A stretch of DNA of 64,000 nucleotides from Bdellovibrionales bacterium (lineage in GTDB: Bacteria; Pseudomonadota; Alphaproteobacteria; UBA2400). The translations under genes and the position numbers were made by a program. Where the stretch lies: the NCBI GenBank assembly GCA_039808765.1, contig JBDHTQ010000004.1, forward strand, positions 74,287-138,286, read 5' to 3'. The notes beneath the pieces are model-generated. The model did no database searches and was not told where the DNA came from. It saw only the letters and a list, made by a program, of their open reading frames with translations. Within the stretch, counting starts at the first letter, position 1, and each line of letters opens with the position of its first letter. Shown piece after piece: positions 37,779 through 54,470 of this stretch.

Positions 37779-38786
37779 GTGTGTTGTGGAGTGCTTGAGA
37801 TGTTTCAGAAACGGTTTTTTCTCCTTTTGCTTATGGTTGTTGCGCTAGCGAGCAGCGTGGCTCAGCCTGTTTGGGCGTCTTCGAATATGGGGCGAGGGTC
37901 GTCGAGCCAAGGCGGAGATGTTGGTTTGGAAGGTTTTGTTGAGCCACCACAAATCAGTCAGGAAGAAATTCTTAGAAAAGCCAAACAGATGGCGTTTGAT
38001 AACGCTCTGGATGGAGCAATGCCCCTCTCGCCTGAGCAGATTGCGGCTATTATTCAAAAAATGTCAATCGTGCAGGAAGCTGCTGCGCCAGCCATAGCAA
38101 ATCCCGTGCGCCCTAAGCCAGTCCTAAAGGTTGAAACAATTTCGCTTGACCCTGGTACTCAGCCCCCTGTCATCAAGGTGGCTGCGGGCTATGTGACGTC
38201 GGTTATGATTCTTGATGCCACCGGGGCGCCGTGGGAGATTAAAGATATTGCGTATGTTGGCAAATTTAACGCGGCCATTCCCAACAGTGCGCCGCATACG
38301 TTTCGAATTTTGCCCCTTAATCGCTTTTATGAGGGCAACTTGACGCTGCAGTTGGTGGGGCTTGCAACACCTGTTACCTTCCGTCTTGAGGCCGGTGAAG
38401 ATGAGGTTTATTACCGTTATGATGTGCGGTTACCTGTTATTGGTCCCAACGCTAAGGCCCCGCAATTTAAGTCTGCAAACAGCATGGTGGCCGGCGATTC
38501 TGTTATGATGGCGGTTTTGAGCGGTTATCCTCCCGCTTCGTCAAAGCGGTTGCAGGTCTCTGGGCTTGATGATCGTTCGGCGGCTTGGGAGATTAATGGT
38601 CAAATTTTCTTGCGCACACCCCACACCTTGCTTTCGCCTGCGTGGTCTGGCAGCACGACATCGGGGGATGGTACCACAGTTTATGCAATTCCCGATACGC
38701 CTGTGCTGCTTCTGTCAGATCAGGGGGTTATGGTTCGTGCACGCTTAAGTCGCCCTAAAGGTATTGTTGAGGGAGAAGCTCAATGA
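37779..38786 (+). CDS. Secreted VirB9/DotH(IcmK)/TraN-like T4SS outer-membrane-complex protein
   Basis: Sec signal (LLLLMVVALASSVAQPVWA) followed by a beta-rich sequence (VIKVAAGYVTSVMILD..., LTLQLVGLATPVTFRLEAG). Its position between the VirB8-like and VirB10-like genes matches the conserved B8-B9-B10 / dotI-dotH-dotG order. Confidence 0.4.
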   Translation: MCCGVLEMFQKRFFLLLLMVVALASSVAQPVWASSNMGRGSSSQGGDVGLEGFVEPPQISQEEILRKAKQMAFDNALDGAMPLSPEQIAAIIQKMSIVQEAAAPAIANPVRPKPVLKVETISLDPGTQPPVIKVAAGYVTSVMILDATGAPWEIKDIAYVGKFNAAIPNSAPHTFRILPLNRFYEGNLTLQLVGLATPVTFRLEAGEDEVYYRYDVRLPVIGPNAKAPQFKSANSMVAGDSVMMAVLSGYPPASSKRLQVSGLDDRSAAWEINGQIFLRTPHTLLSPAWSGSTTSGDGTTVYAIPDTPVLLLSDQGVMVRARLSRPKGIVEGEAQ

Positions 38787-40120
38787 GTAATACATCCGAT
38801 TTTAATGAAACACCCGGTAATTCTCGTTACCGTCGCCCGAACAAGGCGAGCAGTCTTTCTCAGATGTGGCAAAATCCAATCGTCAAGCTTGTTATCGTTT
38901 TGATGGTTTTGGGTGGGGCTGCTCTGGCTGGAATGAAGTTCCTATCGGGGGGGCGTGATGAACAGGAAACAGTTTTGGCAACGCCTGGTTCTGGCGGTGG
39001 TGCTGCAAAAGTAGGTAACCAAATAACACCCGAGTATCAGTTGGCTGTTCAGCAAAGTGATATTCGTAACGCTGCAGAAGCGCGTGCAACGGGTGATACT
39101 GCTGTGCCAACACCTTTGCAGACTGCTGTATCATCACCAGAAGTTGACACTGACATGAATGCCGCTCAAGGGGAGGATCCCATTCGTCAGTTTGAAGCCA
39201 TTTTGCAGAAGGATGGACAGGGAAAGAAGAGTAATTTGCCTCCTCCACAAACAACGCAGCCGGCTGTTCAGGTTCCGCCTGAAGTTTTAAAGCAGCTTAC
39301 GGAAGCGATGGCTAATCAGATTGGTGCGATGATGAAGACGTGGACACCTCCCACAATGTCTCAGGTTACATCGAACATCAAGGAAGAGGACATTTTGATG
39401 CGCAATACGCCGAAGGAAATTTCGGTCGACAGTTTGAAGCCTCTGACCGAGTCTAAACCGGTTGTGACTGCGGGTAGTGTTTATTATGGGCAGATGATTA
39501 TTGAAGCCAATTCTGACATTCCGGGCCCGATTATGGCGCAAATTCTCACTGGACCTTTGGCCGGAGGGCGTGCAATCGGTCAGTTTCAAACGTTTCGCAA
39601 CCATCTTTTGATTCGCTTTGATACGGTTTCACTTGGCACAAATCAGATGAGCGTGGATATTATCGCCCTTGATCCCAATACTACTCTTGGTGGGATTGCG
39701 AGCGAGGTTGACCCGCGTTACTTCCAACGTGTTTTGCTGCCTGCTGCTGCTGCGTTTATTTCTGAATATGGTCAAGCGCTTTCAGAGCCGACCAGCACGG
39801 TAAGTGTTTCAGGGACGGATGGTACCAACATCTCTACTTCGACCAATGAGCGCGATGCAAAAGATGCGATGTATGCTGGTATTGGTGCTGCATCAGAGAA
39901 GATCGAGCAATTCGTGACAGAAGAAGCATCGTCAATTAAGCGCCTTGTTCGCGTTGGCGTGGGCACGCCAATCGGCATGTTTTTTGTGAAGCCTGTTTGC
40001 GGCTTTAGCGGGCAGTGTAATGCGGGGTCAGCGGTAACGCCTGCTTCTTCGCCTTCCCCTTCCCCCGTATCTGTGAGTGGTGTTGTTTCTCCGACATCGA
40101 CATCTTATATTCAACGTTGA
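38783..40120 (+). CDS. VirB10/TrbI/DotG-family T4SS protein
   Basis: N-terminal TM segment (IVKLVIVLMVLGGAALAGM), then a Pro/Gln-rich linker. The C-terminal domain aligns block-by-block to VirB10/TrbI: AGSVYYGQMIIEANSDIPGPIMAQI, GGRAIGQF, LIRFDTVSLGTNQMSVDIIALDPNTTLGGIASEVDPRYFQRVLLPAAAAFIS. Confidence 0.65.
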   Translation: MSNTSDFNETPGNSRYRRPNKASSLSQMWQNPIVKLVIVLMVLGGAALAGMKFLSGGRDEQETVLATPGSGGGAAKVGNQITPEYQLAVQQSDIRNAAEARATGDTAVPTPLQTAVSSPEVDTDMNAAQGEDPIRQFEAILQKDGQGKKSNLPPPQTTQPAVQVPPEVLKQLTEAMANQIGAMMKTWTPPTMSQVTSNIKEEDILMRNTPKEISVDSLKPLTESKPVVTAGSVYYGQMIIEANSDIPGPIMAQILTGPLAGGRAIGQFQTFRNHLLIRFDTVSLGTNQMSVDIIALDPNTTLGGIASEVDPRYFQRVLLPAAAAFISEYGQALSEPTSTVSVSGTDGTNISTSTNERDAKDAMYAGIGAASEKIEQFVTEEASSIKRLVRVGVGTPIGMFFVKPVCGFSGQCNAGSAVTPASSPSPSPVSVSGVVSPTSTSYIQR

Positions 40121-40130
40121 GGTTTTAGTG

Positions 40131-42086
40131 ATGAGAGCTTTTGGTAAACGCGGCGGATCAAATAATCAAAACGACGAGGGATTTGAGGACGAAAACCTTC
40201 CCCCGGAAGATTATTATCAAGAGGAATTTTCTGCTTCTACGCTCGATTCTGAACAAGGCGATGATGACTGGGATTCTTTGTCTGATAATGAAGATTCTGT
40301 CCTCTCTCAAGCTGAGGAAATGAAACATCGTTCCTCGCCCATTGCGCGCATGATTCCTTGGTTTGCCTTGGGTGTGATTGTCGCGGGGGGAATTGTTTAC
40401 TACTTGACGGCCAATATGGGTTCCGGTGTGATTCAGCCGGGAAGTGCTATAACTGCTACCCCTGTTGCCCCGTCAACCAATACTACAGATGAACAATTTG
40501 CCAAACCTATGACATCGCGCGCAACGCCCAGCAGCACAAGTGGTGGGGCAGCGTCAACATCTTCTGGTTCTCCCGAGACGTCAGCATCAGTGTCCATGCC
40601 GGCCTTGCCATCGGATACTGCTTCTGCAAGTGCTCAAACCACCCGATCCGGCTCGTTTATCCCCTCTGACGACGGCACAATTAAATGGGTAGAGCCTGTT
40701 CAATCTCCTGACCAGACGGCCAATAAGGGCAATGTTACGGAGACAGGGACAGCGACGTCTGCATCTACAACAGCTACTGCTGCCACTAACACACCCAGTT
40801 CGGTAACAGAGCAAACTGAGACATCACAACCGCAAACAACGCCGATCATTGGATCACAAGAAACAGTGGAAACCCCGGTTACCACACCGCCTGATTTTTC
40901 TAAGCAGATGGCTTCTATTAATTCCTCATCTGTGACGGATAAACCGGTCACGCCAAACTCACAAAATTCTTCAGCTGCGCAGGAAACTGTCCCATTAAAA
41001 GAACAAACCACGCCGACCGCACCTGCGACACCTAAAAATATTTCGACGGCCAATGACCAACATGCTTCTGAAACAGCTGTTGCCGTGACGCCCTCGACGT
41101 CATCTTCTGACGCCGCGACAAACGAGCGTTCGCCTGAGTCGCTCTTGATGAGTGCGATGAAGTCAACAGCAGATCAGGCAAAAATCCCGCCTGTCGAGAC
41201 GCCTGCAATGACGGCAACAACCGCTCCCACGACGGCCCTTCCAGCAGCGGCTATTCCAACAACGGCAAATGTTAAACCGACGGGCGCTTCTTCTGTACCA
41301 TCTTCATCAGAAGCACCGATACCCAGTGCTGTCACGTCGTCGGGGGAGGCTTCGTCTGCTACATCGGCTCCCTCGCCGTCAGGATTAACGTCAACCTTGG
41401 TTCCGACGTTAGCACCAACAACATCGGTTACAGCACCTGTTTCATCTCAGGGGCTGGGCGTAAGTTCTTCCATTTCGTCGTCCGTCGATGCAACAAAAAC
41501 ACCATCAGCTTCAACTGAAGATGTTGATGATCTCAATTCACGCATGGCTGTGCTTGAGCAGCGATTAGGTGACCTGACGCAGGCATTGGATAAAGTTGCT
41601 GTGCAGAGTACCTCAAAATCATCGGCTACCTCTGAACAAAACACTCAAGCGATGGCTCAGGCTGGTGCATTAAACACTCAGCTTTCTGCACAAATTAAAT
41701 CGCTGCAAAGTGAAATGCAGTCTCTTAAGTCGCAGGTAAAAGATCAAAGCCGGGCGGCCGTGCCGTCATCTGTCACAACATCACCTGTTGTAACATCGGT
41801 TGAAAATAAACAGCCACCCAAAACAATTCCGCTTTTGCCATCCAAGCCCCAGACGGAATCACACAAAGTGGCAACTGCATCGTCCCCTGCTCAAGCCAAT
41901 TCTGCTAAAGCGTGGGAACTGCGTGCGGCGCAGGCTGGCGAGGCTTGGGTAGCGCGTAAAGGCTCAGACAATTTGCAGCATGTCACGGTCGGTCAGTCCG
42001 TGAGTGGTTTGGGTCGCGTGACCAGTATTCGTGAGAAAAATGGGGCATGGGTTGTCGTGACAACAGGCGGTACGCTGCGTCAGTAA
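40131..42086 (+). CDS. Ser/Thr/Ala/Pro-rich bitopic protein with a C-terminal coiled coil and a small beta domain, possibly the DotF/IcmG/TraP analogue
   Basis: TM segment (IPWFALGVIVAGGIVYYL) followed by about 380 aa of S/T/A/P-rich low complexity. A coiled coil (LEQRLGDLTQALDK...LQSEMQSLKSQVKD) and a compact C-terminal domain follow. The gene sits immediately after the VirB10-like gene, as dotF follows dotG. Confidence 0.3.
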   Translation: MRAFGKRGGSNNQNDEGFEDENLPPEDYYQEEFSASTLDSEQGDDDWDSLSDNEDSVLSQAEEMKHRSSPIARMIPWFALGVIVAGGIVYYLTANMGSGVIQPGSAITATPVAPSTNTTDEQFAKPMTSRATPSSTSGGAASTSSGSPETSASVSMPALPSDTASASAQTTRSGSFIPSDDGTIKWVEPVQSPDQTANKGNVTETGTATSASTTATAATNTPSSVTEQTETSQPQTTPIIGSQETVETPVTTPPDFSKQMASINSSSVTDKPVTPNSQNSSAAQETVPLKEQTTPTAPATPKNISTANDQHASETAVAVTPSTSSSDAATNERSPESLLMSAMKSTADQAKIPPVETPAMTATTAPTTALPAAAIPTTANVKPTGASSVPSSSEAPIPSAVTSSGEASSATSAPSPSGLTSTLVPTLAPTTSVTAPVSSQGLGVSSSISSSVDATKTPSASTEDVDDLNSRMAVLEQRLGDLTQALDKVAVQSTSKSSATSEQNTQAMAQAGALNTQLSAQIKSLQSEMQSLKSQVKDQSRAAVPSSVTTSPVVTSVENKQPPKTIPLLPSKPQTESHKVATASSPAQANSAKAWELRAAQAGEAWVARKGSDNLQHVTVGQSVSGLGRVTSIREKNGAWVVVTTGGTLRQ

Positions 42087-42104
42087 CCCTATTGCAGAAA
42101 AAAA

Positions 42105-42149
42105 GCACAGCCATCTGGTGAGCGTACCACGGTCACCAGATGGCTGTGC
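42105..42149 (+). terminator. Perfect 17-bp inverted repeat (GCACAGCCATCTGGTGA-loop-TCACCAGATGGCTGTGC) just after the stop of the DotF-like gene
   Basis: Read directly from the sequence. It is preceded by an A7 run and followed by a weak T-rich stretch. It could be a terminator/attenuator or an RNA stability element. Confidence 0.35.
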
Positions 42150-42412
42150 AGCTTTGTTCGCATCATCACTTTCGTGTGTTTATGGTAAATCCTGAGTAGA
42201 TAGAATCGAAGAAGCCATCTTTGGCGCCGTATTTGCGTTAAAAATATAAAATAGAGCATTTCTACCTTTTGGAGATGCGCTCTAGCCCTGCAATTGACTC
42301 TACACCATCCGTGTTTTTGATTTTTTGCAGTAGGGGAAAATGATTGACTTCAATACGGCATTCGTCCAGATTAAGGCCACAAAGACTTTTTTATACTTAG
42401 AAGGAGATATCA

Positions 42413-42901
42413 ATGAGCAATTTAGGAGAAAAATTTAAAGAATCGGCTGAAAAGTTCAAAAATTACATCCAAGGAAATAAAACGACAGTACGTATGTTTT
42501 GTGGTGTGTCCACAGCTTTTCTTTTCGGAGCAGCTTTAGATCATACCCTGATGTGGGCAAGTATGCTTGCACCAACTTCATTAACACTGCCTAGCGCAAC
42601 CATTAGCGTTGCGTTGGGTTTCGGCGCTGCTCGCCAGATTGATAAGGGGTTAAAATTATTGCCAAATGATGATAATAACAGTATTTTAGGCTCGCCAAAA
42701 GCAGGATTTATAGATGCCGCTGGATTCGCCGTATTGTCAGGCATGGCAACGCATATGGGTTTTGCGTTATCGTTGTGTGAGTTTCCAAAAGCATCTGTAT
42801 TCGGCCTCCTTGTAGGGGGAATTTGTGGCGCTACCGCAGTTGCTTTGTTTCGTGATAGTGCGCACGCGCTGCGCTCAAAAGTTTCTCGAGCAATGCATTA
42901 A
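42413..42901 (+). CDS. Small polytopic membrane protein in the T4SS-like operon (about the size of IcmC/DotE)
   Basis: 162 aa with 3-4 hydrophobic helices and an AGGAG RBS upstream. No family recognised. Confidence 0.3.
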   Translation: MSNLGEKFKESAEKFKNYIQGNKTTVRMFCGVSTAFLFGAALDHTLMWASMLAPTSLTLPSATISVALGFGAARQIDKGLKLLPNDDNNSILGSPKAGFIDAAGFAVLSGMATHMGFALSLCEFPKASVFGLLVGGICGATAVALFRDSAHALRSKVSRAMH

Positions 42902-43216
42902 TTTTATATGGTTCAATTTTTTCAGGCGAGATATTGTTCAGCGTGATTTGTGAGGAAGCGTTCTGGATCGATTATTGTTTGTTCCTGTTTTTCCTGTGCC
43001 TGGCATTGGTGGCTGCATTTTTGCGTGCAGACAAAAATGCCAGGTTTTTACGTTTTTAAGAAAACAAACCGATTGCGAGAGTGAAATTTTTGGTTAAGGA
43101 CTCGTTTTTTAGCGAATTTGTTCTAAATTCTCGTAAAATTTATCGATTAATTAAAGTAATGGGTGTTCATTTGATCATTCTAACCTGTTATAATTGCAGG
43201 ATAAGATAGAGGAGAT

Positions 43217-44191
43217 GTGCCTATGGATTGCACTAAAAAAGATTTTTTCGCTTCAAAATCAAATGGATGCCTAACGTTCAGTGTGGCTCTAATCAGCGTG
43301 CTGTTCTTTGCTTTTCCTGCATTCGCTGATGAAGATTTGGGCGCAAGCATTCTTAGTGTCGTTAATTCGGGTTACAGTAATGTTCCAATTATTCTGACGT
43401 ATTTCTCTTACATTGCGGGGCTTATGCTTGGTCTGATCGGTTTAAATAAAATAAAAACCCATTTCGTTGGTGGGAATCAGCCTCTTTCTGGTGGATTGTG
43501 GCATCTGGTTGGCGCATCGCTGCTAATTTCTTTGCCCACAGCATGGGGCATGATTGTTCGTTCTCTCAAAACGGGTTCTGTATCGGGTTCCACGCGGGCT
43601 GTGGCCGATTTAAGTGGGGCAGGTGGGGGCACAGGGAGCTTATCGCTTGACCAAATGATGATCGACTTGGTAACCAATATCCAAGCACCGATGGGCTACC
43701 TTTTGTGGAGCTTGAGTGCAGTATTGGGACTATTCTTCCTAACCACCTCATTTTTGCGAATGGCCAAAAACTCTGGTCAGGATGGACCGCGTAACTCACT
43801 GGGTGCGGGAACACTCAGCCGAGTAGTTATCGGCGGGTTACTTCTTTCATTCTCGGCGACGGCAGACATTGTAACGACCACCCTGTTTGGTACCAATGTT
43901 CTTAAATTTTCATCAATGGATCTGAGCGGTTCGGTAGATGCGAATGCGTTAGACCATATTAATGCGACCATTTCGGCTGTGTTGGTTTTCGTTCAGATTC
44001 TTGGGTTCATTGCTTTTATGCGTGGTTTTTTGATGCTTCGTGCCCAGTTTGACGGTGGTAACGGAAGTACAGCGGCTGCTTTTACCCATATTATTGGTGG
44101 AGCGGTGGCGTTTAATATTTCCTCATTTATGGGGATTATGGAAAAAACGTTCTGTGCAACCGCTGGGTGTAGCGTCTTTGAATTTAACTGA
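43217..44191 (+). CDS. Polytopic membrane protein with a signal peptide, last gene of the T4SS-like operon
   Basis: 324 aa. A signal-like N-terminus (FSVALISVLFFAFPAFADE) is followed by about 6 TM helices and Gly-rich loops. A strong terminator follows. Confidence 0.3.
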   Translation: MPMDCTKKDFFASKSNGCLTFSVALISVLFFAFPAFADEDLGASILSVVNSGYSNVPIILTYFSYIAGLMLGLIGLNKIKTHFVGGNQPLSGGLWHLVGASLLISLPTAWGMIVRSLKTGSVSGSTRAVADLSGAGGGTGSLSLDQMMIDLVTNIQAPMGYLLWSLSAVLGLFFLTTSFLRMAKNSGQDGPRNSLGAGTLSRVVIGGLLLSFSATADIVTTTLFGTNVLKFSSMDLSGSVDANALDHINATISAVLVFVQILGFIAFMRGFLMLRAQFDGGNGSTAAAFTHIIGGAVAFNISSFMGIMEKTFCATAGCSVFEFN

Positions 44192-47913: not shown

Positions 47914-47989
47914 GGGGCAATAGCTCAGTTGGTAGAGCGCTACATTCGCATTGTAGAGGTCGGGAGTTCGACTCTCCTTTGCTCCACCA
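47914..47989 (+). tRNA. tRNA-Ala (anticodon CGC)
   Basis: Cloverleaf folded by hand. The acceptor stem GGGGCAA/TTGCTCC carries the Ala identity pair G3:U70. D-arm GCTC-AGTTGGTA-GAGC; anticodon arm CTACA-TTCGCAT-TGTAG (anticodon CGC); T-arm GGGAG-TTCGACT-CTCCT; discriminator A; encoded CCA. Confidence 0.8.
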
Positions 47990-48145
47990 TTCCGTCTGGC
48001 CGGTCAGGCCTTTTTGCATATATCCCCTGCTTTTGTCCCGATTGAGGGGGTATTTCGCCACCACCGGGTCGGGGAGAGCGGACTTTCGGTCCTTAATCGG
48101 CCTCTTCGGGCTAGAATTCTCCGTTTCAGATTGTGTCCGACCCGC
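47958..48145 (+). repeat. Direct repeat copy 1 (attL-like). It covers the 3' 32 nt of tRNA-Ala plus about 155 nt downstream.
   Basis: About 190 bp that recurs with roughly 93% identity at 54279-54470. The two copies bracket a 6.3-kb insert. Confidence 0.6.
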
Positions 48146-48292
48146 GAGCGTATATGTGGCAGAATTATTCAAAATCACTTTGCGAAATGTGATCGACGCT
48201 CGCCGCGCGCGATTTATTTTAATACCGCCAATCACATCGCCTTACGCCCGGACATCTTCATATTCCTAGAGGCAAGTTTCACTACCTAATTT

Positions 48293-49300
48293 TTAAAGTT
48301 CTGGGAACATCACATCTGCCATATATGCTGCCACATTACGGGGTCGGCCGATGGCGGGCATGTGGTGCATGGCGAGACCGGGGTTGGCATTAATCTCGAT
48401 GATCGCATGGGTAACCGTAGTCTGATCGACGGTAATGTCCGGAGTAAGAAAATCGATCCCTACACAGGGAAGACCATCGAATGTCTGCAGTGCTCTTTTT
48501 GCAATGCTCAACACCGAGGAATGAATCACATCTGTCATGTCCGTTGATACGCCGCCTTGAGCTAGATTAGAAATGAGTCGCAGATAGATTTTTTCACCTT
48601 TATTCGGGACGTGATCAAAGTTCAGGCCCTTCTGCTGCAGGTAATTCAGCACGATATCGTCGAGGGCTATGGGGCAGAGGGCACTACCCTCTTTCTTTTT
48701 GACAGACTCCCGCCGGAGACTTTCCTGCTCAGCTAGAGCTCGGATATTGTTTTTGCCGTCACCTATTACATGCGCGGGATCGCGAAGTAGAACTGCGTAG
48801 TCTCCCTTGGTGGTGATGAAGATGCGGTACTCGTTGCCGTGAATATGCCGTTCGACGATAAAGAAAGATTGCTCTCCTGCCTGATGGAGAAGGGCGTAAA
48901 TTGCATCCTGCAGCTGTTCTCTGTTTTCGAGGCCGGAGCGAACTAACTCGCCATGCGAGCCGGTATTCGGTTTGACCACAAGCGGGAAGCCGATTTCGTC
49001 GCCATAATTCAGCGCTGCCTCGATATCGCCGCCCGTGAAGATTCGTCCCTCGGGCACATACAGCCCACTCTCTTCCAGAAGTAATTTAGCCGTGTGTTTG
49101 TCCGCCGCTAACGAGGACGGCAGATAAGGCACGATTTTGCTAGCCCGGTCGAGCAGATACTCAGTCGTTCCTTTATAAGACACCCGCATAAGCTCGAGAT
49201 TGTAGTCGAGCGAAGTGACATTCGCCCCGCGGCGCACGAGTTCTTCAACCAGGAGACGCTGATTGGTATGAAGACAGCTGAGATCAAGTGTACTCGTCAC
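48293..49300 (-). CDS. ATP-grasp ligase (RimK / LysX / graspetide-ligase-like)
   Basis: 335 aa with a GTG start. ATP-grasp blocks present: FPLVVKPNTGSHGELV, HIHGNEYRIF, IIEINANPG. Confidence 0.65.
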   Translation of the reverse strand: MTSTLDLSCLHTNQRLLVEELVRRGANVTSLDYNLELMRVSYKGTTEYLLDRASKIVPYLPSSLAADKHTAKLLLEESGLYVPEGRIFTGGDIEAALNYGDEIGFPLVVKPNTGSHGELVRSGLENREQLQDAIYALLHQAGEQSFFIVERHIHGNEYRIFITTKGDYAVLLRDPAHVIGDGKNNIRALAEQESLRRESVKKKEGSALCPIALDDIVLNYLQQKGLNFDHVPNKGEKIYLRLISNLAQGGVSTDMTDVIHSSVLSIAKRALQTFDGLPCVGIDFLTPDITVDQTTVTHAIIEINANPGLAMHHMPAIGRPRNVAAYMADVMFPEL

Positions 49301-49417
49301 TTACTGCGGACGAGGCCGACCAGTGACGGGACGCGGATCAACGTCAAGTTTGCGCGGCGAACGGCCACGGGCAGGTCGGCTGCGATAATTTTCAGTCGGA
49401 TTATTATCTTCAGACAT
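49301..49417 (-). CDS. Candidate 38-aa Pro/Arg-rich peptide gene (possible RiPP precursor/substrate), below the 60-aa ORF-track cutoff
   Basis: Translated by hand: MSEDNNPTENYRSRPARGRSPRKLDVDPRPVTGRPRPQ*. An SD-like GAGGTG lies 5 nt upstream of the ATG. The TAA stop abuts the GTG start of the ATP-grasp gene, and the ORF fills the gap between the methyltransferase and ATP-grasp genes. Confidence 0.4.
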   Translation of the reverse strand: MSEDNNPTENYRSRPARGRSPRKLDVDPRPVTGRPRPQ

Positions 49418-49476
49418 TTGGCACCTCACTCTACAGGCAATTCTAGCATCTGGCAAACGGGTTTTGCAAGCAGAAA

Positions 49477-50154
49477 TTATCCTTCAAAAATAAGCACGTT
49501 ATGACCGATTTCAGCAGTGTTAACTTTTTGGCCGACCGCTTCGCCCCATATACCGCCGATGATGTGGCGAGCATGGGTAATATCCCTGAACTGAAAGCTC
49601 GTTGCCAGCCGGGCGGTGATCCGAAAGCCGGCTACGTCCTGAAGCCAGGCGTTATAAGCGATTGAAACGGGGATTTTTTCTCTTATCTCTTCAAACATGC
49701 CGCTGGCATCGTTCTCAACCAGAAAAATTCTACCGCCGGGATGTAAAGAGGCGCGGACGCAGTTCAGAATATCTAGTCGCTTCGGCTCACTGCTAATGGT
49801 ACCAAGCATCCAGCAGGCGAGCGCGATATCGTATTTTCCGAGGTTGGGATTTTCAGCAGCATCGGCGTGAATGAATGAGATGTTTCTAAAGTTTCGGGTC
49901 TGCGCCCGCGCTATCGTCAGCTGCGCCTCAGCAGCGTCTAGCCCACAGATATGCTGCGCATGGGGAGCAAAAAGTCTTAGATATTTTCCGGTGCCGCAGC
50001 CGAGATCAAGCATGGTCTTGTTTTCGATGTGGGGTAATAGCCAATTAAAGACCTGGCCTCGGGCATCTTCAGCTGCGCAAAACTCTTCATAAAGATTGGC
50101 CTTCTGGTAATAGACTTCTGATTTTTCTTGAAGGTTGTTCTTGGAATAGCTCAT
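49477..50154 (-). CDS. Class I SAM-dependent methyltransferase (start trimmed to MSYSKNN, an ATGA overlap with the upstream stop)
   Basis: SAM-binding motif I LDLGCGTGKYL plus a motif II/III acidic loop. Length about 225 aa. Confidence 0.65.
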   Translation of the reverse strand: MSYSKNNLQEKSEVYYQKANLYEEFCAAEDARGQVFNWLLPHIENKTMLDLGCGTGKYLRLFAPHAQHICGLDAAEAQLTIARAQTRNFRNISFIHADAAENPNLGKYDIALACWMLGTISSEPKRLDILNCVRASLHPGGRIFLVENDASGMFEEIREKIPVSIAYNAWLQDVAGFRITARLATSFQFRDITHARHIIGGIWGEAVGQKVNTAEIGHNVLIFEG

Positions 50155-52565
50155 GCTTTCTTTTCCCATAGCAGAATGATGTCTTTGTTGTTGTCTTCCC
50201 ACGCGCTTTGAATCTCGATTTCCGTGTAAACGCCGTCGGCGTAATGACCGAAAGCTTTATGGCGAGCTTCCGAGTCGTTGATCCGGCTGCGCACGTTTGA
50301 TCCATTCATGTTGTAGGCGTCAAAGACGTAGCCGAGAATCATCTGACCGCCGGGCCGAAGGCGTTTAGCCATTGGCGTAACGATCTTCGACCGGAACTCT
50401 TCAAGATAATCACTGTCATACATGTGGTGCGCGTAATCGCTGAGGTTGGAGAGGAGGATGGTGTCGTAGCTGTCTTCCGTCTGTGCCATCTCTTCAGCTG
50501 TAAGGGTATTCCATTTCACCTCTAGCTTATGGCAAGCCGTCTGTGCTTTTGCATAGGCATCTATATTGGCGAGATAGGGATTGTTGAGAGCAATCCGCTC
50601 GCCTGACTGCTGTTTGCGGAACAAAGCCGAATGGCGCATAGCTGAGCCATCCATGTTGAAGAATTTGTAGGCGCTATCAAAGAAGTATCTGGCAGAAAGA
50701 CTTAATCCATCCCTGCAGATTTGATATCTATCGTGCTCCATAAGCAAGAGGAAATTCTGGAACTCTGAAATTCCGAAAGTATGGAGAGCTGCCAGCTTGA
50801 GTTCAGCCATATATTTTGCAAGCAGGTTGACGTCAAAATTTACAACGCTCTTCGCCCCAGCCATACAGACGTTGATCAATTGATCGCCCGATGCACCGAC
50901 GGTCAGGACGTCCTTGCCAGAAAAGTCGAGAAAGTTAAGATACCCGCCGATATTCTCTGTTGCGAAGGCATAGACAGGGCTCGCCTTTGAATAGCGCCCT
51001 CCGCGCTGAAGATTGGCGATCAGATCGCCTTCGAACAAGGAAGCGATGAATTCGGCCTCGGCAAATTGGGGAACGATTTGCATCGGGCAGCGATCAAGTC
51101 CTGATCGGGTAAGGCCAGTCACTAAATGCCGGAATGAAGTGTTCTCACGGTCCTCAAGAATTTCCCGTAGGGTGTGATCATGTAGCGTCTTTTCTGCGAT
51201 ATAAGTCGGGCGGCGCTCCGCCACCCACGTGCAGGGTGAAATACGCCCTTTATGGTCGATAAAGAGGAACCGCTCTCCACCAGGGCAGGCGCCGCAGCCC
51301 TCCTTCACCGTTTCGGCGAAGTTGCCGTTGACTTTGATGCGGCCCGAGAATTCCGCGCGAAGCGCCTCGATCTCAGCCTTCATTTCGCTGATGGGACGGT
51401 CACACAACATGGCTGGACGGTTGCGCATGCGTCCGACCGGTTCCATCAGGGAATAAATCACCTCATTGCAACCAAGCTCAAAACAGAATTCGGTGATTGC
51501 CCGCATTTCGTTCTGATTGTTCCGGTAAAGAACGCAACCAATACGCACATAAATTCCGTTGTCTACAAGATGTTTTAAGCCATTAATCGTCGGTGTATAA
51601 GTTCGCTTTCCACGTATTGCTTCCTGCAGCTCTTGCGTATGCCCGTCGAGGCTGACATGAACCATATCAAGCTTCAGAGAAGCTAGTTCCTGCACCACCT
51701 CTGCCGTGATGAAGGCGGCGTTTGTCGAGAGGTCCGTTCGGAAGTTCTGCTGGCGAGCATACTTCAGAATATCCATAAGATCGGGTCGCGTAAACGGCTC
51801 GCCCCCCGTGATCTTGAGATGCGTGAACCCGCATTCCTTCAGACCATCGATTGTCTCGTAAATTTTGGCCGTGGAAAGTTCATCGGCCTGCGGGCGCGAG
51901 GTCGAGCTGAAAATGCAGTAACGGCAGCCGTAGTTGCAGGTATTAGTTATTTCCCAGATGACTCGGCCGCCATGGCGGGGAATGCGGAAGAGGCAGAACG
52001 ACGTTGCAGGATCGTAATCATCGGCGCAGAGTTCATAGGCTTTCTCTATATTATCGTCGATCAACCCAGCGGTTGTATCCACAAGTTGATATGGTTTGCC
52101 ATATTGTTCAAGAAGAGTGATTATCTCTGACGTTGGCATTTGCCTCTTTAAGCGCGCATCAATCTGCGCGTTCGAAAGATCTCCGCCTTGGAGGCGCGCC
52201 ATGCGCTCAATATCATTGCAATGCACGACGATGACACCGTCGACCATATCGAGATATCCATCCTCGATAAGTCGCGCCCATTCTAGGACGACAAGACCTT
52301 CCGCAGCCTGGACTTGCCGTTGCGCCTCGGTGCGCGTAGACTCGCTTACTTTCTCCCACAAAGCCTCAAAATGATCGGGGTCGGAGCCACCGATAGTGCG
52401 GCGTATCGTGTCGATGGAAACAAGAGTGGCTCCCACTTTTTTGACCAGACGATCCGCCAGCGTCGTTTTTCCCGCTCCCATGCCGCCCGTAATGCCGATG
52501 ACGCGTGAGGCCATTCTAATATTCCCAGCCAAGGCCATAGCGCAGCGGGCAGAGCGACACGACAT
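50151..52565 (-). CDS. Three-part fusion protein: a P-loop kinase-like N-terminus (dephospho-CoA-kinase-like), a radical SAM core with a SPASM/twitch-like Cys-rich extension, and a C-terminal domain of unknown function
   Basis: The N-terminal VIGITGGMGAGKTTLADRL is a CoaE/AAA-kinase P-loop. The radical-SAM cluster motif is TNTCNYGCRYCIF (CxxxCxxC). An auxiliary Cys region follows (CGACPGG...ISPCTW). A further roughly 280-aa domain brings the total to 804 aa. Confidence 0.55.
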   Translation of the reverse strand: MSCRSARCAMALAGNIRMASRVIGITGGMGAGKTTLADRLVKKVGATLVSIDTIRRTIGGSDPDHFEALWEKVSESTRTEAQRQVQAAEGLVVLEWARLIEDGYLDMVDGVIVVHCNDIERMARLQGGDLSNAQIDARLKRQMPTSEIITLLEQYGKPYQLVDTTAGLIDDNIEKAYELCADDYDPATSFCLFRIPRHGGRVIWEITNTCNYGCRYCIFSSTSRPQADELSTAKIYETIDGLKECGFTHLKITGGEPFTRPDLMDILKYARQQNFRTDLSTNAAFITAEVVQELASLKLDMVHVSLDGHTQELQEAIRGKRTYTPTINGLKHLVDNGIYVRIGCVLYRNNQNEMRAITEFCFELGCNEVIYSLMEPVGRMRNRPAMLCDRPISEMKAEIEALRAEFSGRIKVNGNFAETVKEGCGACPGGERFLFIDHKGRISPCTWVAERRPTYIAEKTLHDHTLREILEDRENTSFRHLVTGLTRSGLDRCPMQIVPQFAEAEFIASLFEGDLIANLQRGGRYSKASPVYAFATENIGGYLNFLDFSGKDVLTVGASGDQLINVCMAGAKSVVNFDVNLLAKYMAELKLAALHTFGISEFQNFLLLMEHDRYQICRDGLSLSARYFFDSAYKFFNMDGSAMRHSALFRKQQSGERIALNNPYLANIDAYAKAQTACHKLEVKWNTLTAEEMAQTEDSYDTILLSNLSDYAHHMYDSDYLEEFRSKIVTPMAKRLRPGGQMILGYVFDAYNMNGSNVRSRINDSEARHKAFGHYADGVYTEIEIQSAWEDNNKDIILLWEKKA

Positions 52566-53910
52566 TCATATTTGGTGTGCGGTACCGAAGTGCCTCCACG
52601 TTCATAAATTCATCCGGGTGGCGGACCACAGCATAGCCACCCCCGCTCAGTTCTGCTGCGATGCCCTCGACGGCTTCGCGCACCCGCTCGGAGCTTACCT
52701 TGGCTAGGTTCTGGTTCTGCATGCCCTGATGAATGTATTGCGTCGAAGGAATGTCGGAATAATCCTCATAAATTCTGCTACCCATGCGGATGGCCAGATG
52801 GTGCAGCCGCACTTCTTCAGTGCGAAGTTCCAGAATGAGATCGGCCGTGCGTTGGAGTTCATCCTCAGTTGATCCGGGCAGATCCATGATCCAGCTTGTC
52901 CGCACGCGGAAACCCATCTCTCGTGTGCGATTCACGATGCGGCGCACATCGTCCGCATTGACCTTCTTGTGGATAGAGTTTAGAAGCCGATCATCGCCGG
53001 ATTCGACGCCATAGTGGATCCAGCGGAATCCCGCCTCATGCATGGTTTCCATCATCTCTTCTTCGAACAGGTTGAGCGAGCCGAGGCACCCCATTGCGAC
53101 TTTTATCTTGCGCGCGATAAGTTCTTCGCAGATATCCTTCATACGTTTGCGTCCGACGGTTGCGTTATCGTCGAGGAACAAAATTTTCTTCGCGCCGCAT
53201 TCATTGACGAGATACTCAATCTCATTTGCGATGGCTCCAGCACTGCGTCCGCGCCAGTTGCCCCAGAATCCGGGGACATGGCAGAAATCGCATTTCATGT
53301 GGCATCCACGGCTGGAAAGGATGGTACGTACATCGATATAGGCATCAAGGTCAACGAGGCTGCGTTTAGCGATGGGAAGCGTGTCGAGATCGAACGGCTG
53401 GCTTGGGCGATCCGTGACGTGAATGTCTAGACTTCCGTCCAGATAGCAAATCCCCGGTATTTGCTTGAGCGAATTCTGAGACCATGTTGGTACCGCAAGT
53501 AGCGCGCTCAGAGCCAGCTCCATCTCATGCCGTATCAGAACATCTACAGGCGTCCCGCTGAAAAGAAGCTGCTCAGGCTTATAGGTCGCCGTTTTCCCAC
53601 CAACGATGACCTTTGCCCCCCGCGCCCTAGCCTGATCAGCGATGTTCCGAACAGCCTCAAGCGTCCCATCGCAATGAAGAGGGATGTGATAATCATAGAT
53701 GATAATGGCGATATCATATGCAAAATCGGTCATATGATTTTTGAAATCTTCCGGTCGGATCTGGCGGACATCCATATCCAACAGTCGCACTTCATGGCCG
53801 AGCACCGCGACAAAGGATGCCGTAACCAAAACATCGATTGGCTCGATCAGGATACCCTTGGAACTGAACGGCACATTTGGCGGATTGATGATCAATGCCT
53901 TCATTTCCAA
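52516..53910 (-). CDS. B12-binding-domain radical SAM protein (class B rSAM)
   Basis: An N-terminal Rossmann-like B12-binding region (MKALIINPP...) is followed by SSRGCHMKCDFCHV (CxxxCxxC) and a TIM-barrel radical-SAM core. Length 464 aa. Confidence 0.7.
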   Translation of the reverse strand: MEMKALIINPPNVPFSSKGILIEPIDVLVTASFVAVLGHEVRLLDMDVRQIRPEDFKNHMTDFAYDIAIIIYDYHIPLHCDGTLEAVRNIADQARARGAKVIVGGKTATYKPEQLLFSGTPVDVLIRHEMELALSALLAVPTWSQNSLKQIPGICYLDGSLDIHVTDRPSQPFDLDTLPIAKRSLVDLDAYIDVRTILSSRGCHMKCDFCHVPGFWGNWRGRSAGAIANEIEYLVNECGAKKILFLDDNATVGRKRMKDICEELIARKIKVAMGCLGSLNLFEEEMMETMHEAGFRWIHYGVESGDDRLLNSIHKKVNADDVRRIVNRTREMGFRVRTSWIMDLPGSTEDELQRTADLILELRTEEVRLHHLAIRMGSRIYEDYSDIPSTQYIHQGMQNQNLAKVSSERVREAVEGIAAELSGGGYAVVRHPDEFMNVEALRYRTPNMNVVSLCPLRYGLGWEY

Positions 53911-54278
53911 ATGTTTACCTCAATTCTTAAAAGATGGGGCAGACTAACATATCTCTCTTCGAGAAATCCACTTTAATATATTGAACTCAAGCCTTGTTTT
54001 CTGGCCTCGCGTCCGAACCTACGGACCTCCAAAATAGCCATCATTTACCCCGGTTAAGGTATAGCACCGAGTGCTATTAACATCAAGGTAGTATACCTGT
54101 GTGTTTGGGTCATTCTGAGATCAGGTTTCTCACCTGAATCTCTCCCTTGCAGAGGAGAGTCCTGCAATCGGTATCCTGCATCGTTGCAGAGCAACATTTC
54201 TGTTATGAAATGACATAATATCAGCTGGTTAGGCCATATCATGACAGGAATTAGCCATGGTTGGGCATATAGTTGCTG

Positions 54279-54470
54279 GTCGGACCGGGAGTTCGACTCT
54301 CCTTTGCTCCACCATTCCGTCAGGGCGGTCAGGCCATTTTGCATATATCCCCTGCTTTTTCCCCGATTGAGGGGGTATTTCGCCACCACCGGGTCGGGGA
54401 GAGCGAACTTCCCGCCCTTAATCGGCCTCTTCGGGCTAGAATTCTCCGTTTCAGATTGTGTCCGACCCGA
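54279..54470 (+). repeat. Direct repeat copy 2 (attR-like). It consists of the tRNA-Ala 3' fragment plus the downstream segment.
   Basis: It matches 47958-48145, including GGGAGTTCGACTCTCCTTTGCTCCACCA. Only the 3' end of the tRNA is duplicated, as expected for a tRNA-targeted insertion. Confidence 0.6.

Follow-up and report, generated by a model that had tools for sequence, protein, structure and literature searches.

The stretch of DNA analyzed here (the window) comprises 64,000 nucleotides from a Bdellovibrionales bacterium (GTDB lineage Bacteria; Pseudomonadota; Alphaproteobacteria; UBA2400; assembly GCA_039808765.1, contig JBDHTQ010000004.1, positions 74,287 to 138,286 of the forward strand), and it contains a 6.1-kb inserted island that carries only four enzyme genes and an ORF of 38 amino acids, all on the minus strand. 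The ORF reads from an ATG at 49417-49415 to a TAA at 49303-49301 and encodes MSEDNNPTENYRSRPARGRSPRKLDVDPRPVTGRPRPQ, which includes 7 Pro, 8 Arg, 2 Glu, 3 Asp, 2 Thr, and 1 Lys; the GTG start of the ATP-grasp gene (49300-49298) directly follows its stop codon. The enzymes comprise six modules, a B12-radical SAM, a CoaE-like kinase, a radical SAM/SPASM, DUF3419, a class I methyltransferase, and a cyanophycin-synthetase-like ATP-grasp. The GC content of the island is 50-56%, as compared with 43-47% in the flanks, and the island, which is inserted at a tRNA-Ala, is absent from a close relative (L069; L numbers designate the related loci that were compared, and P numbers entries in the public protein collection).

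Features of the 38-codon ORF, the enzyme cassette, and the island that carries them (window coordinates)
Position	Strand	Feature	Observations
49301..49417	-	38-aa ORF (stop included), MSEDNNPTENYRSRPARGRSPRKLDVDPRPVTGRPRPQ	Shortest member of the MSE[D/S/N]/[G/S/T]-E-[D/S/N] peptide family; motifs S2-E3-D4 and T8-E9-N10; identical protein P0124 in the public collection
49422..49427	-	Shine-Dalgarno-like GAGGTG	4 nt upstream of the ATG; read directly from the sequence
49440..49469	-	Promoter-like site TTGCAA-18 nt-TAGAAT, with TG before the -10, in the 59-nt gap after the methyltransferase stop	Weak evidence only; 9/12 match, but the number of such sites in the region equals the chance expectation
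48293..49300	-	Stand-alone ATP-grasp ligase (335 aa) resembling the G domain of cyanophycin synthetase	ATP-grasp Lys (K110) and E302-x-N304 metal-ligand motif conserved
49477..50154	-	Class I SAM methyltransferase	Likely start is the ATG at 50154, overlapping the upstream stop as ATGA; longest ORF runs to 50202; the L024 gene call starts at the equivalent Met
50151..52514	-	Fusion protein: CoaE-like P-loop kinase, radical SAM with a SPASM-like region (CxxxCxxC present), and DUF3419 (BtaA-type)	Likely start is the ATG at 52514, 1 nt after the B12-rSAM stop; longest ORF runs to 52565
52516..53910	-	B12-binding radical SAM enzyme (464 aa)	First gene of the cassette
48145..54285	.	6.1-kb inserted island carrying only the cassette	Absent from the close relative L069
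47961..48144	+	Left copy of the 184-nt direct repeat	Starts in the T-arm of tRNA-Ala(cgc), which lies at 47914-47989
54286..54469	+	Right copy of the 184-nt direct repeat	95% identical to the left copy; contains a partial tRNA 3' end

The observation made in the first-pass annotation, that a small co-oriented ORF lies between the methyltransferase and ATP-grasp genes, is confirmed, but some details require correction. The Shine-Dalgarno sequence had been placed 5 nt rather than 4 nt from the ATG. The ORF does not fill a 59-bp gap, as had been stated; the interval between the methyltransferase and ATP-grasp genes is 176 nt (49301-49476), of which the ORF occupies 117 nt, leaving 59 nt upstream. 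It is also not entirely unannotated, since the exact 38-residue sequence is already in the public protein collection (P0124, NCBI source, from a contig of 238,603 nt, the same size as that given for the identical ATP-grasp P0001 and MetK P0128), so that some gene caller has predicted it, although exact look-ups of the peptide and the ATP-grasp in a contig index found neither. The protein has no name, and Pfam and NCBIfam gave no family for it or for ten longer relatives.

It should be noted that the open frame alone is not evidence for a gene, because Pro/Arg-rich, GC-rich DNA is open in several frames; the antisense ORF at 49268-49504 (+) is an example, but it was rejected as a candidate since it overlaps both neighboring genes and its frame shows no selection signal. 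The case for the ORF rests on conservation. The same six modules co-occur in about 30 related loci, from Proteobacteria to candidate-phyla bacteria, with varying order and fusions, and a variable-length ORF or protein tail almost always lies directly upstream of the ATP-grasp, even where the methyltransferase or the B12 enzyme has moved. In relatives this ORF ends 0-27 nt before the ATP-grasp start or overlaps it (by 4 nt in L025 and L072 and by 26 nt in the L068 gene call). The closest relatives, L024, L063, L064, L065, L068, L025, and L070, whose ATP-grasps are 55-71% identical, all encode MSED...GGGED[H/Y]RS...GEDL...GEDL peptides of 57-224 residues at this site; the 57-aa and 70-aa homologues in L024 and L063 had not been called as genes. 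The ATG TCN GAR GAY start varies only at synonymous positions, whereas the 5' leader is unalignable; after the methyltransferase stop, CTTGCAAAA is shared exactly with L024, but L063 has CTTGCGAAA and L065 only GCTTGC. In contrast, 0 of 20 ATP-grasp homologues outside the cassette have such an ORF; these controls came from a scan of GTDB, which returned only homologues of ≤39% identity that lack the cassette.

Conservation in homologous clusters and the pattern of codon substitution had been proposed in advance as tests of the ORF, with missing ORFs or frameshifts counting against it, and the outcomes were in its favor: homologous clusters keep an intact ORF at this position, substitutions are mostly synonymous in this frame, and indels are in frame. 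In six pairwise comparisons among the close relatives, two of them including the window ORF, pN is 0.20-0.37 and pS is 0.55-0.78, and the proposed frame has the lowest pN/pS of the six frames; in a further set of comparisons pN is 0.20-0.53 against pS of 0.64-0.97. In the subgroup of GESR-type members, dN/dS is 0.25-0.33 and all indels are in frame.

The members usually start MSE[D/S/N], and the only family-wide feature is one or more [G/S/T]-E-[D/S/N] motifs, of which there are 79 instances in 19 peptides (position -1: G 61, S 15, T 3; position +1: S 42, D 31, N 6). The motif is enriched over composition-preserving shuffles in most members, and both Glu residues of the window peptide lie within it (p about 0.002 against such shuffles), but it should be recognized that the motif is short and was defined after looking at the data. 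L040 has only a 40-aa ORF without the strict motif, and L059 is unclear. Other apparent exceptions are large proteins in the cassette that end in Ser/Gly-rich tails with a terminal Glu, such as those of L030 (...GASGE), the ClpB-like protein of L032 (...SSSGE), and L034 (...GYGSNE), and these conform to the rule. A profile search of 1.84 billion representatives found only five true members of the MSED subgroup and two spurious repeat proteins. The window peptide has only two motifs, SED and TEN, and has lost both GEDL motifs of its closest relatives, the aligned positions reading KLDVD. The predicted model of the peptide has no fold (pLDDT 61).

The AlphaFold model of the ATP-grasp has a pLDDT of 91.9, and its best fold matches are CphA2, the G domain of CphA1, and GshAB (TMq 0.78-0.84), which are also its best sequence matches (E 8e-45, about 30% identity). 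K110 and E302-x-N304 are invariant in 27 homologues, and the G-domain-type ATP-grasp fold with its ATP and Mg ligands is thus present in the predicted structure. Cyanophycin synthetases and GshAB phosphorylate a carboxylate at the end of a peptide chain and add an amino acid. However, the protein does not have the three-domain architecture of CphA1 (N domain, ATP-grasp G domain, and Mur-ligase-like M domain): it has 335 residues as compared with about 900, residues 59-334 align to CphA1 residues 210-478 only, the score of 226 bits is far below the family cut-off of 877 bits, and it is linked to a gene-encoded peptide and to radical SAM enzymes.

The interpretation offered in the first-pass annotation is partly supported. 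The ORF is a genuine operon member and the best candidate for the peptide substrate of the cluster, as had been suggested, but the implied graspetide-type chemistry, in which Thr or Lys would form ester or isopeptide rings with Asp or Glu, is not supported. Graspetides (microviridin-type RiPPs made by MdnB/MdnC-type ligases; PMC8939145) likewise have an ATP-grasp gene next to a small peptide gene containing Asp, Glu, Thr, and Lys, and some of their loci also encode SPASM enzymes and UbiE-like methyltransferases. However, the present ligase belongs to the cyanophycin-synthetase/GshAB clade; its best PDB and NCBIfam matches are cyanophycin synthetase, GshAB, and NAGGN synthetase, and no microviridin-type (MdnB/MdnC, MvdC/MvdD) family or structure appears among the matches at E ≤ 0.01 or in the top 50 fold matches. 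The peptide has no Phhx(1,2)h leader signature and no TxxxT...D...D type core, and Thr and Lys are not conserved across the 19 family members; whether the product contains omega-ester or omega-amide macrocycles was not measured. The CPR graspetide branches in PMC8939145 also differ in ligase type, partner genes, and precursor features.

Comparison with RiPP precursors modified by radical SAM/SPASM enzymes, including multi-core precursors, gives a mixed picture. As with PqqA and PqqE in PQQ biosynthesis, a small gene, of a kind that gene callers often miss, sits inside an operon of radical SAM/SPASM, B12-radical SAM, and methyltransferase enzymes and carries a short repeated motif containing an invariant Glu, and the generic requirement for a short peptide gene adjacent to, co-oriented with, and conserved with modifying enzymes is satisfied. 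On the other hand, no PqqD/RRE Pfam match occurs in any cassette protein, although divergent RREs could escape Pfam, no leader/core architecture can be recognized, and the island contains no protease or exporter, so that a classical secreted RiPP is not indicated; one distant relative (L072) has an S9 peptidase and a PIG-L gene downstream. The motif region can also be the tail of large proteins, and the enzyme set matches no curated RiPP family in NCBIfam. An aromatic partner for the Glu, as in PQQ, was considered but rejected because L060 has no aromatic residue at all.

In amino-group carrier protein systems (LysW/LysX and AmCP-dependent secondary metabolism; PMC11726168; PDB 5k2m and 3vpb), a small, easily overlooked peptide is also encoded beside an ATP-grasp ligase. 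In these systems the substrate is amide-linked to a Glu γ-carboxylate of the carrier and is processed while tethered by several enzymes, including a kinase. Some distant relatives of the window peptide end in SGE, but the window peptide has no Cys or His and ends ...RPRPQ, and so has neither the Zn-binding globular part nor the C-terminal EDWGE tail of the carrier, which has about 54 residues; the motifs are internal and repeated. LysX-type ligases are only remote matches (LysX_arch, E 1.9e-10, 40 bits against a 276-bit cut-off; LysX and ArgX structures, TMq 0.47-0.50), and no LysZ, LysY, LysJ, or LysK homologues are present. Glutamylation of disordered Gly/Glu-containing tails, by RimK on ribosomal protein S6 (PMC10375531) and by TTLL enzymes on tubulin (bioRxiv 10.1101/2020.06.07.139295), involves ATP-grasp enzymes that add amino acids to Glu residues, either C-terminal or internal through an isopeptide branch, which fits the ...SGE tails and the internal GE[S/D/N] motifs; however, those systems consist of a single enzyme, whereas here five further modules are obligatorily linked, and RimK is a distant fold match (TMq about 0.55). 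In the betaine-lipid pathway (PMC10685587), BtaA transfers the homoserine moiety of SAM to an oxygen and BtaB trimethylates its amine, and the cassette similarly pairs a DUF3419 (BtaA-type) domain with a class I methyltransferase, but the Pfam match covers only the N-terminal third of the DUF3419 model (E 3e-10), similarity of the methyltransferase to BtaB was not examined, and there is no lipid context. Tagging of the Pup/PafA type, defined by a disordered tag ending in GGQ or GGE and a glutamine-synthetase-like PafA/Dop ligase, does not apply, since the peptide, although disordered, ends in PQ without GG and no PafA/Dop-type protein is in the island. PADLOC gave only generic radical SAM (pVip) and methyltransferase similarity, which is not a known defense system, a scan of IMG/VR found no viral copy of the ATP-grasp, and full-text literature searches found no description of this cassette or motif, although a prior mention in the 2009 amidoligase survey by Iyer et al. 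cannot be excluded.

Taken together, the most probable explanation, in which we have moderate confidence, is that the ORF is a translated gene encoding the dedicated substrate (precursor or scaffold) peptide of a conserved, horizontally mobile six-module modification cassette. What the analysis itself demonstrates is that the peptide family is conserved, is under purifying selection in this frame only, is intrinsically disordered, and is genetically welded to the ATP-grasp gene, with the motif as its only family-wide feature. The rest is inference: that the invariant Glu is the reaction site; that the ATP-grasp phosphorylates a carboxylate of the peptide, most plausibly the Glu γ-carboxylate, the only one available at internal motifs, and then ligates an amine to it; that the radical SAM, kinase, DUF3419, and methyltransferase modules either build that amine or elaborate the adduct while it is tethered; and that Ser, Asp, or Asn at +1 and Gly or Ser at -1 would give a flexible turn that presents the Glu. 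In this view the window peptide is a minimal two-motif version. There is no direct evidence of translation or modification, only single chains were modeled, and the chemistry is unknown. It should also be noted that the nearest characterized ATP-grasp relatives act on C-terminal α-carboxylates, whereas the C termini of the family are not conserved (that of L024 is ...PRPW), and that the CoaE-like kinase hints at a nucleotide-like small-molecule substrate, so that the cassette could make a small molecule with the peptide in another role.

A less likely alternative is that the gene is real and conserved but that its product is an accessory factor for the ATP-grasp or the radical SAM enzymes, such as a primer, an activator, a product-binding or self-protection peptide, or a scaffold that recruits the enzymes. 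The lack of a protease, exporter, or RRE, the kinase and BtaA-like domain, which are typical of small-molecule chemistry, and the C-terminal helical or coiled-coil part of many members, which could mediate binding, are consistent with this. However, a folded accessory protein would conserve a domain, whereas only a tripeptide motif in a disordered, length-variable region is conserved; the motif is repeated up to 8 times and occurs as tails on unrelated large proteins, which is the behavior of modification sites, and the helical part is absent from the window, L024, and L063 peptides. It is also unlikely that the ORF is, in this genome, a decayed remnant of a longer family member that no longer functions. 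It is the shortest member, lacks both GEDL motifs and the C-terminal helix, and has the rarer TEN variant as its second motif, but the start codon, Shine-Dalgarno sequence, frame, and stop-start junction are intact, the four enzyme genes are full-length with catalytic motifs present, pN is below pS against L024 and L063, MSEDNN is identical to L024, and Thr at -1 and Asn at +1 both occur elsewhere in the family.

A regulatory upstream ORF or leader peptide, for which only the act of translation matters, perhaps to couple or tune ATP-grasp expression or to sense Arg or Pro supply, or a chance ORF in GC-rich spacer DNA, is very unlikely. The stop-start abutment implies translational coupling, 15 of 38 codons are Pro or Arg, and other frames of this DNA are also open, but MSED and the motif Glu are invariant among the five aligned close relatives, with synonymous variation, homologues reach 100-1164 residues, and the motif persists across phyla whose codon usage differs completely. 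The proline-rich, ribosome-targeting peptide proposed as the other possibility in the first-pass annotation is not supported and is most improbable: the peptide is cationic and has two PRP triplets (DPRPV and RPRPQ), but Pro/Arg richness is confined to the GC-rich relatives, the wider family is Ser/Gly/Tyr/Arg-rich and its GESR-type members have almost no Pro, the conserved part is acidic, and no signal peptide, exporter, or immunity gene is present in the island.

A more far-reaching possibility, which remains tentative, is that the ORF marks a previously undescribed post-translational modification system, in which a mobile six-module enzyme set would install a complex, multistep modification, possibly a homoserine- or betaine-like or nucleotide-containing adduct joined through the γ-carboxylate, on the Glu of [G/S/T]-E-[D/S/N] motifs in disordered peptides or protein tails. 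The substrates would range from a free 38-residue peptide to the tails of ClpB-like and macro-domain-like proteins, and the system would be spread by horizontal transfer among Proteobacteria, candidate-phyla bacteria, and DPANN archaea.

Because gene callers miss members of this family, as in L024 and L063, surveys of the cassette based on annotation would not see the substrate. If the peptide is the substrate, the window provides the smallest natural version of an uncharacterized peptide or protein modification system, one 38-residue peptide with two motifs and four enzyme genes in 6.1 kb, and thus a directly clonable test case. The cassette is widespread in genome-reduced symbiotic lineages, with ATP-grasp homologues named from Patescibacteria, Woesearchaeota, Nanoarchaeota, and Margulisiibacteriota, and these lineages seldom keep large biosynthetic operons; the combination of a B12-radical SAM, a SPASM radical SAM, a CoaE-like kinase, a BtaA-like domain, a methyltransferase, and a CphA-like ligase predicts new chemistry on glutamate.

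The first-pass annotation described a small ORF between the methyltransferase and ATP-grasp genes, and this observation is confirmed. The ORF is real, lies on the minus strand and encodes the 38-residue product MSEDNNPTENYRSRPARGRSPRKLDVDPRPVTGRPRPQ. A GAGGTG sequence lies 4 nt before the ATG, and the GTG of the ATP-grasp gene follows the stop with no gap. The interval between the methyltransferase stop and the ATP-grasp start is 176 nt, of which the ORF takes 117 nt and leaves 59 nt upstream. The upstream genes are tightly packed, the B12-radical SAM stop being 1 nt from the likely start of the fusion protein, whose own stop overlaps the likely methyltransferase start as ATGA. The exact 38-aa sequence is present, unnamed, in the public protein collection (entry P0124, from an NCBI contig of 238,603 nt, with the identical ATP-grasp and MetK on a contig of the same size), and the earlier description of the ORF as unannotated therefore holds only for the track of ORFs of ≥60 aa.

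Pfam and NCBIfam searches identify the neighboring products as a B12-binding radical SAM enzyme, a fusion of a CoaE-like P-loop kinase, a radical SAM with a SPASM-like region (best matches AhbD, MftC, NirJ, and PqqE) and a DUF3419 domain, a class I SAM methyltransferase, and a stand-alone ATP-grasp, but no curated equivalog fits any of these proteins. The nearest relatives of the ATP-grasp are the G domain of cyanophycin synthetases and the GshAB ligase domain (E 8e-45 to 7e-35). A confident AlphaFold model (pLDDT 91.9) matches CphA2 and CphA1 at TMq 0.78-0.84, whereas RimK, Ddl, and LysX lie far behind and no graspetide ligase is among the top 50 matches.

Coordinates of the features discussed, in the window and in related loci (L numbers)
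Sequence	Position	Strand	Feature
Window	49417-49301	minus	38-aa ORF; ATG at 49417-49415, TAA at 49303-49301
Window	49427-49422		GAGGTG
Window	48293-49300		Stand-alone ATP-grasp; GTG start at 49300
Window	49477-50154		Class I SAM methyltransferase; stop at 49477
Window	50154-50151		ATGA overlap of fusion stop and likely methyltransferase start
Window	50151-52514		Kinase-radical SAM-DUF3419 fusion; likely start ATG 52514
Window	52516-53910		B12-binding radical SAM enzyme
Window	49268-49504	plus	78-aa antisense ORF
Window	48145-54285		Insertion carrying the cassette
Window	47914-47989		tRNA-Ala(cgc)
Window	47961-48144		Direct repeat, 184 nt, left copy
Window	54286-54469		Direct repeat, 184 nt, right copy
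Window	47914-48144		tRNA-Ala(cgc) and left repeat together
L069	4650-4883		Empty site
Window	38783-44191		IncI/Dot-Icm-like type IVB secretion genes
Window	38783-40120		DotG/IcmE and TraO-like match
Window	43217-44191		TraQ-like match
Window	58400-63000		Low-GC stretch
L030	6863-8329		488-aa protein with Glu-ending tail
L032	5486-8980		1164-aa ClpB-like protein with Glu-ending tail
L034	2501-4393		630-aa protein with Glu-ending tail
L036	6651-7034		Domain of about 110 aa plus GESR repeats
L038	3649-4224		Domain of about 110 aa plus GESR repeats
L061	1171-1728		Domain of about 110 aa plus GESR repeats
L024	1146-5322		Upstream extension of the cassette
L068	919-5092		Upstream extension of the cassette
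L072	10012-13045		Downstream PIG-L and S9 peptidase genes
L057	8713-9428		Peptide ORF and ATP-grasp gene with frameshifts
L064	5375-11028		Mobile and defense-type genes
L024	11106-13567		Mobile and defense-type genes

Protein searches, exact-protein look-ups, and a metagenome scan gave about 45 loci (designated here by L numbers) carrying relatives of the ATP-grasp at 39-71% identity. In all loci with enough flanking DNA the same six modules co-occur, but in different orders and fusion states: kinase-rSAM-DUF3419 as one protein, rSAM-DUF3419, rSAM-DUF3419-methyltransferase, or all modules separate. Fusion and co-transfer of the modules argue that they act in one pathway. Some relatives extend the cassette; L024 and L068 add a PhyH-type dioxygenase, an unknown 378-aa protein, an AAA_33 kinase, and a family-1 glycosyltransferase upstream, whereas the distant relative L072 has a PIG-L deacetylase and an S9 prolyl-oligopeptidase directly downstream.

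Directly upstream of the ATP-grasp there is almost always an ORF of very variable length. Among the closest relatives, that of L024 (57 aa) reads MSEDNNHGYGGGEDHRSAPSRRPSRSPAPPRSPGEDLRGPRRGGEDLGPSPRSPRPW, that of L063 (70 aa) reads MSEDHNYGQGGGEDHRS...GEDL...GEDL...PRPW, those of L064, L065, L068, L070, and the protein entry P0126 (98-122 aa) have the same N-terminal part plus a helical C-terminal part, and that of L025 (224 aa) reads MSEDYEFS...SGED... More distant cassettes have other variants: MSENLSSGSSGENL... in L060 and L072, MSENSYGSS...GSGEDS in L058, MSEDGESPSD in L046, MSESVSGGESYS...GESPSGESYS in L037, MSGESGD...GGESGD in L039, MSESRGGESRSYSSY...GESRSSGESR... in L041-L054, and C-terminal SSGES...GES arrays ending at the stop in L029 and L031. 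L036, L038, and L061 share an unannotated N-terminal domain of about 110 aa, without a Pfam or NCBIfam match, followed by 2-8 GESR repeats; in L038 this gene sits after the radical SAM gene rather than before the ATP-grasp. The loci that at first seemed to lack the ORF carry large proteins in the cassette whose S/G/Y-rich tails end in Glu: a repeat/coiled-coil protein in L030 (...GYGASGE at the C terminus), a ClpB-like AAA+ protein in L032 (...RRSSSSGE), and a protein with a weak macro-domain match and a coiled coil in L034 (...SSGYGSNE). The family-wide feature is the tripeptide [G/S/T]-E-[D/S/N], of which there are 79 instances in 19 peptides (position −1: G 61, S 15, T 3; position +1: S 42, D 31, N 6). 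In 14 of these 19 peptides (MSG-E in L039) the first motif forms the N terminus, as MSE[D/S/N].

Conservation in homologous clusters, the codon-substitution pattern, and the occurrence of frameshifts had been named in the first-pass annotation as the grounds on which the ORF would stand or fall, and the comparisons indicate that it is coding and more than a chance ORF. Among the close relatives the 5′ leader is unalignable, but the start ATG TCN GAR GAY is kept with synonymous changes only, and pN is 0.20-0.53 while pS is 0.64-0.97. In six pairs the proposed frame has the lowest pN/pS of all six frames (0.26-0.53), followed, as expected, by the antisense frame that shares its third positions; it should be recognized, however, that the alignments were guided by the translation of this frame, which favors it somewhat. 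In the GESR subgroup dN/dS is 0.25-0.33 against the most diverged member, and every indel is in frame. In the L057 copy (VOFF01000680.1) both the peptide ORF and the ATP-grasp gene are broken by frameshifts, reflecting either joint decay or assembly error. The motif, although defined after inspection, is enriched over composition-preserving shuffles in most members (P about 0.002 for the window peptide). None of 20 ATP-grasp homologues outside the cassette (about 28-39% identity) has a motif-bearing upstream ORF, and the window contains no second MSE[D/S/N] small ORF. The antisense ORF spans the small ORF and overlaps both neighboring genes; similar open antisense or alternative frames in L024 and L063, like this one, reflect the P/R/G-rich codon composition and show no selection signal.

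The window peptide is the shortest member of the family. It aligns as MSEDNN----PTENYRS...RSP...KLDVDPRP...PRPQ against MSEDNNHGYGGGEDHRS...RSPGEDL...GGEDLGPSPR...PRPW, so that it keeps two canonical motifs, SED and TEN, but lacks the two GEDL motifs and, like the L024 and L063 peptides, the C-terminal helix. Its Pro/Arg richness is shared only with the GC-rich relatives, and its AlphaFold model shows no fold (pLDDT 61).

The analysis demonstrates a disordered, motif-bearing peptide that is conserved, selected, and genetically coupled to a CphA/GshAB-type ATP-grasp inside a six-module cassette, whereas it is by inference that the peptide is regarded as the substrate or scaffold and the invariant Glu as the reactive residue. 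ATP-grasp ligases form an acyl-phosphate on a carboxylate and pass it to an amine. At internal motifs the only carboxylate is the Glu γ-carboxylate (with the Asp side chain at +1 only in some lineages), but at the tails ending in GE both the α- and γ-carboxylates of the terminal Glu are free. Working analogies are provided by the TTLL glutamylases, which branch from internal Glu residues of disordered tubulin tails (bioRxiv 10.1101/2020.06.07.139295), and by LysX, which loads an amino acid on a Glu γ-carboxylate of the small carrier LysW, after which a kinase and other enzymes work on the tethered intermediate (AmCP systems are described in PMC11726168). The DUF3419 domain is of the BtaA type; with the N-methylase BtaB, BtaA builds an O-homoserine betaine from SAM (PMC10685587). 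The DUF3419 plus methyltransferase pair may therefore add and methylate a 3-amino-3-carboxypropyl unit, and the CoaE-like kinase hints at a ribose or nucleotide hydroxyl, but these last points are speculation. The absence of an RRE, protease, or exporter from the window island argues against a classical secreted RiPP.

Among the alternatives, the peptide could be an accessory factor rather than the substrate, or the window copy could be a decayed remnant. A pure upstream-ORF regulator and a proline-rich antimicrobial-type peptide are both poorly compatible with the family-wide conservation of an acidic motif and with homologues of 100-1164 aa.

The 184-nt direct repeat, whose two copies are 95% identical, starts in the T-arm of tRNA-Ala(cgc). 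A contig from a close relative (L069; MetK 96% identical) has the same flanking genes, with a single tRNA-Ala, a single copy of the repeat, and no cassette, and the cassette with its peptide gene is therefore the only content of a 6.1-kb insertion at the 3′ half of the tRNA gene. The GC content of the insertion is higher than that of the flanks, and no integrase lies inside. Between the window and L069 the left flank is only 81-89% identical but the right flank is 98% identical, suggesting a recombination mosaic. The host is an alphaproteobacterium only distantly related to named Rhodospirillales (MetK 71-74% identical), which carries Dot/Icm-like type IVB secretion genes a few kb from the island, with FliI, ClpA, and PBP2 genes upstream. 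Beyond the sulfotransferase gene lies a stretch of markedly low GC (33-40%, against 45-55% elsewhere), the content of which was not examined. In other hosts the cassette sits among mobile and defense-type genes, with HipA/HTH, Mrr-like, and NikA-like genes in L064 and Abi_alpha, DUF2726, and T5orf172 genes in L024, which is consistent with horizontal spread.

Full-text literature searches, which did not extend to the 2009 amidoligase survey, found no description of the cassette or the motif, and the CPR graspetide loci of PMC8939145 differ in ligase clade, partner genes, and precursor features. The system fails the tests of membership for graspetides, cyanophycin synthetase (of which it shares only the G-domain-type ATP-grasp fold), LysW/LysX, and Pup/PafA. 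The interpretation in the first-pass annotation is upheld only in part: its reading of the ORF as a precursor or substrate peptide is supported by comparative evidence, although it is unproven biochemically, but the graspetide-like and proline-rich readings are not supported. The system works like a RiPP pathway or a carrier-peptide pathway. A gene-encoded peptide with dedicated modifying enzymes is an arrangement that is already known, but here it is combined with a new enzyme set and a new recognition motif.
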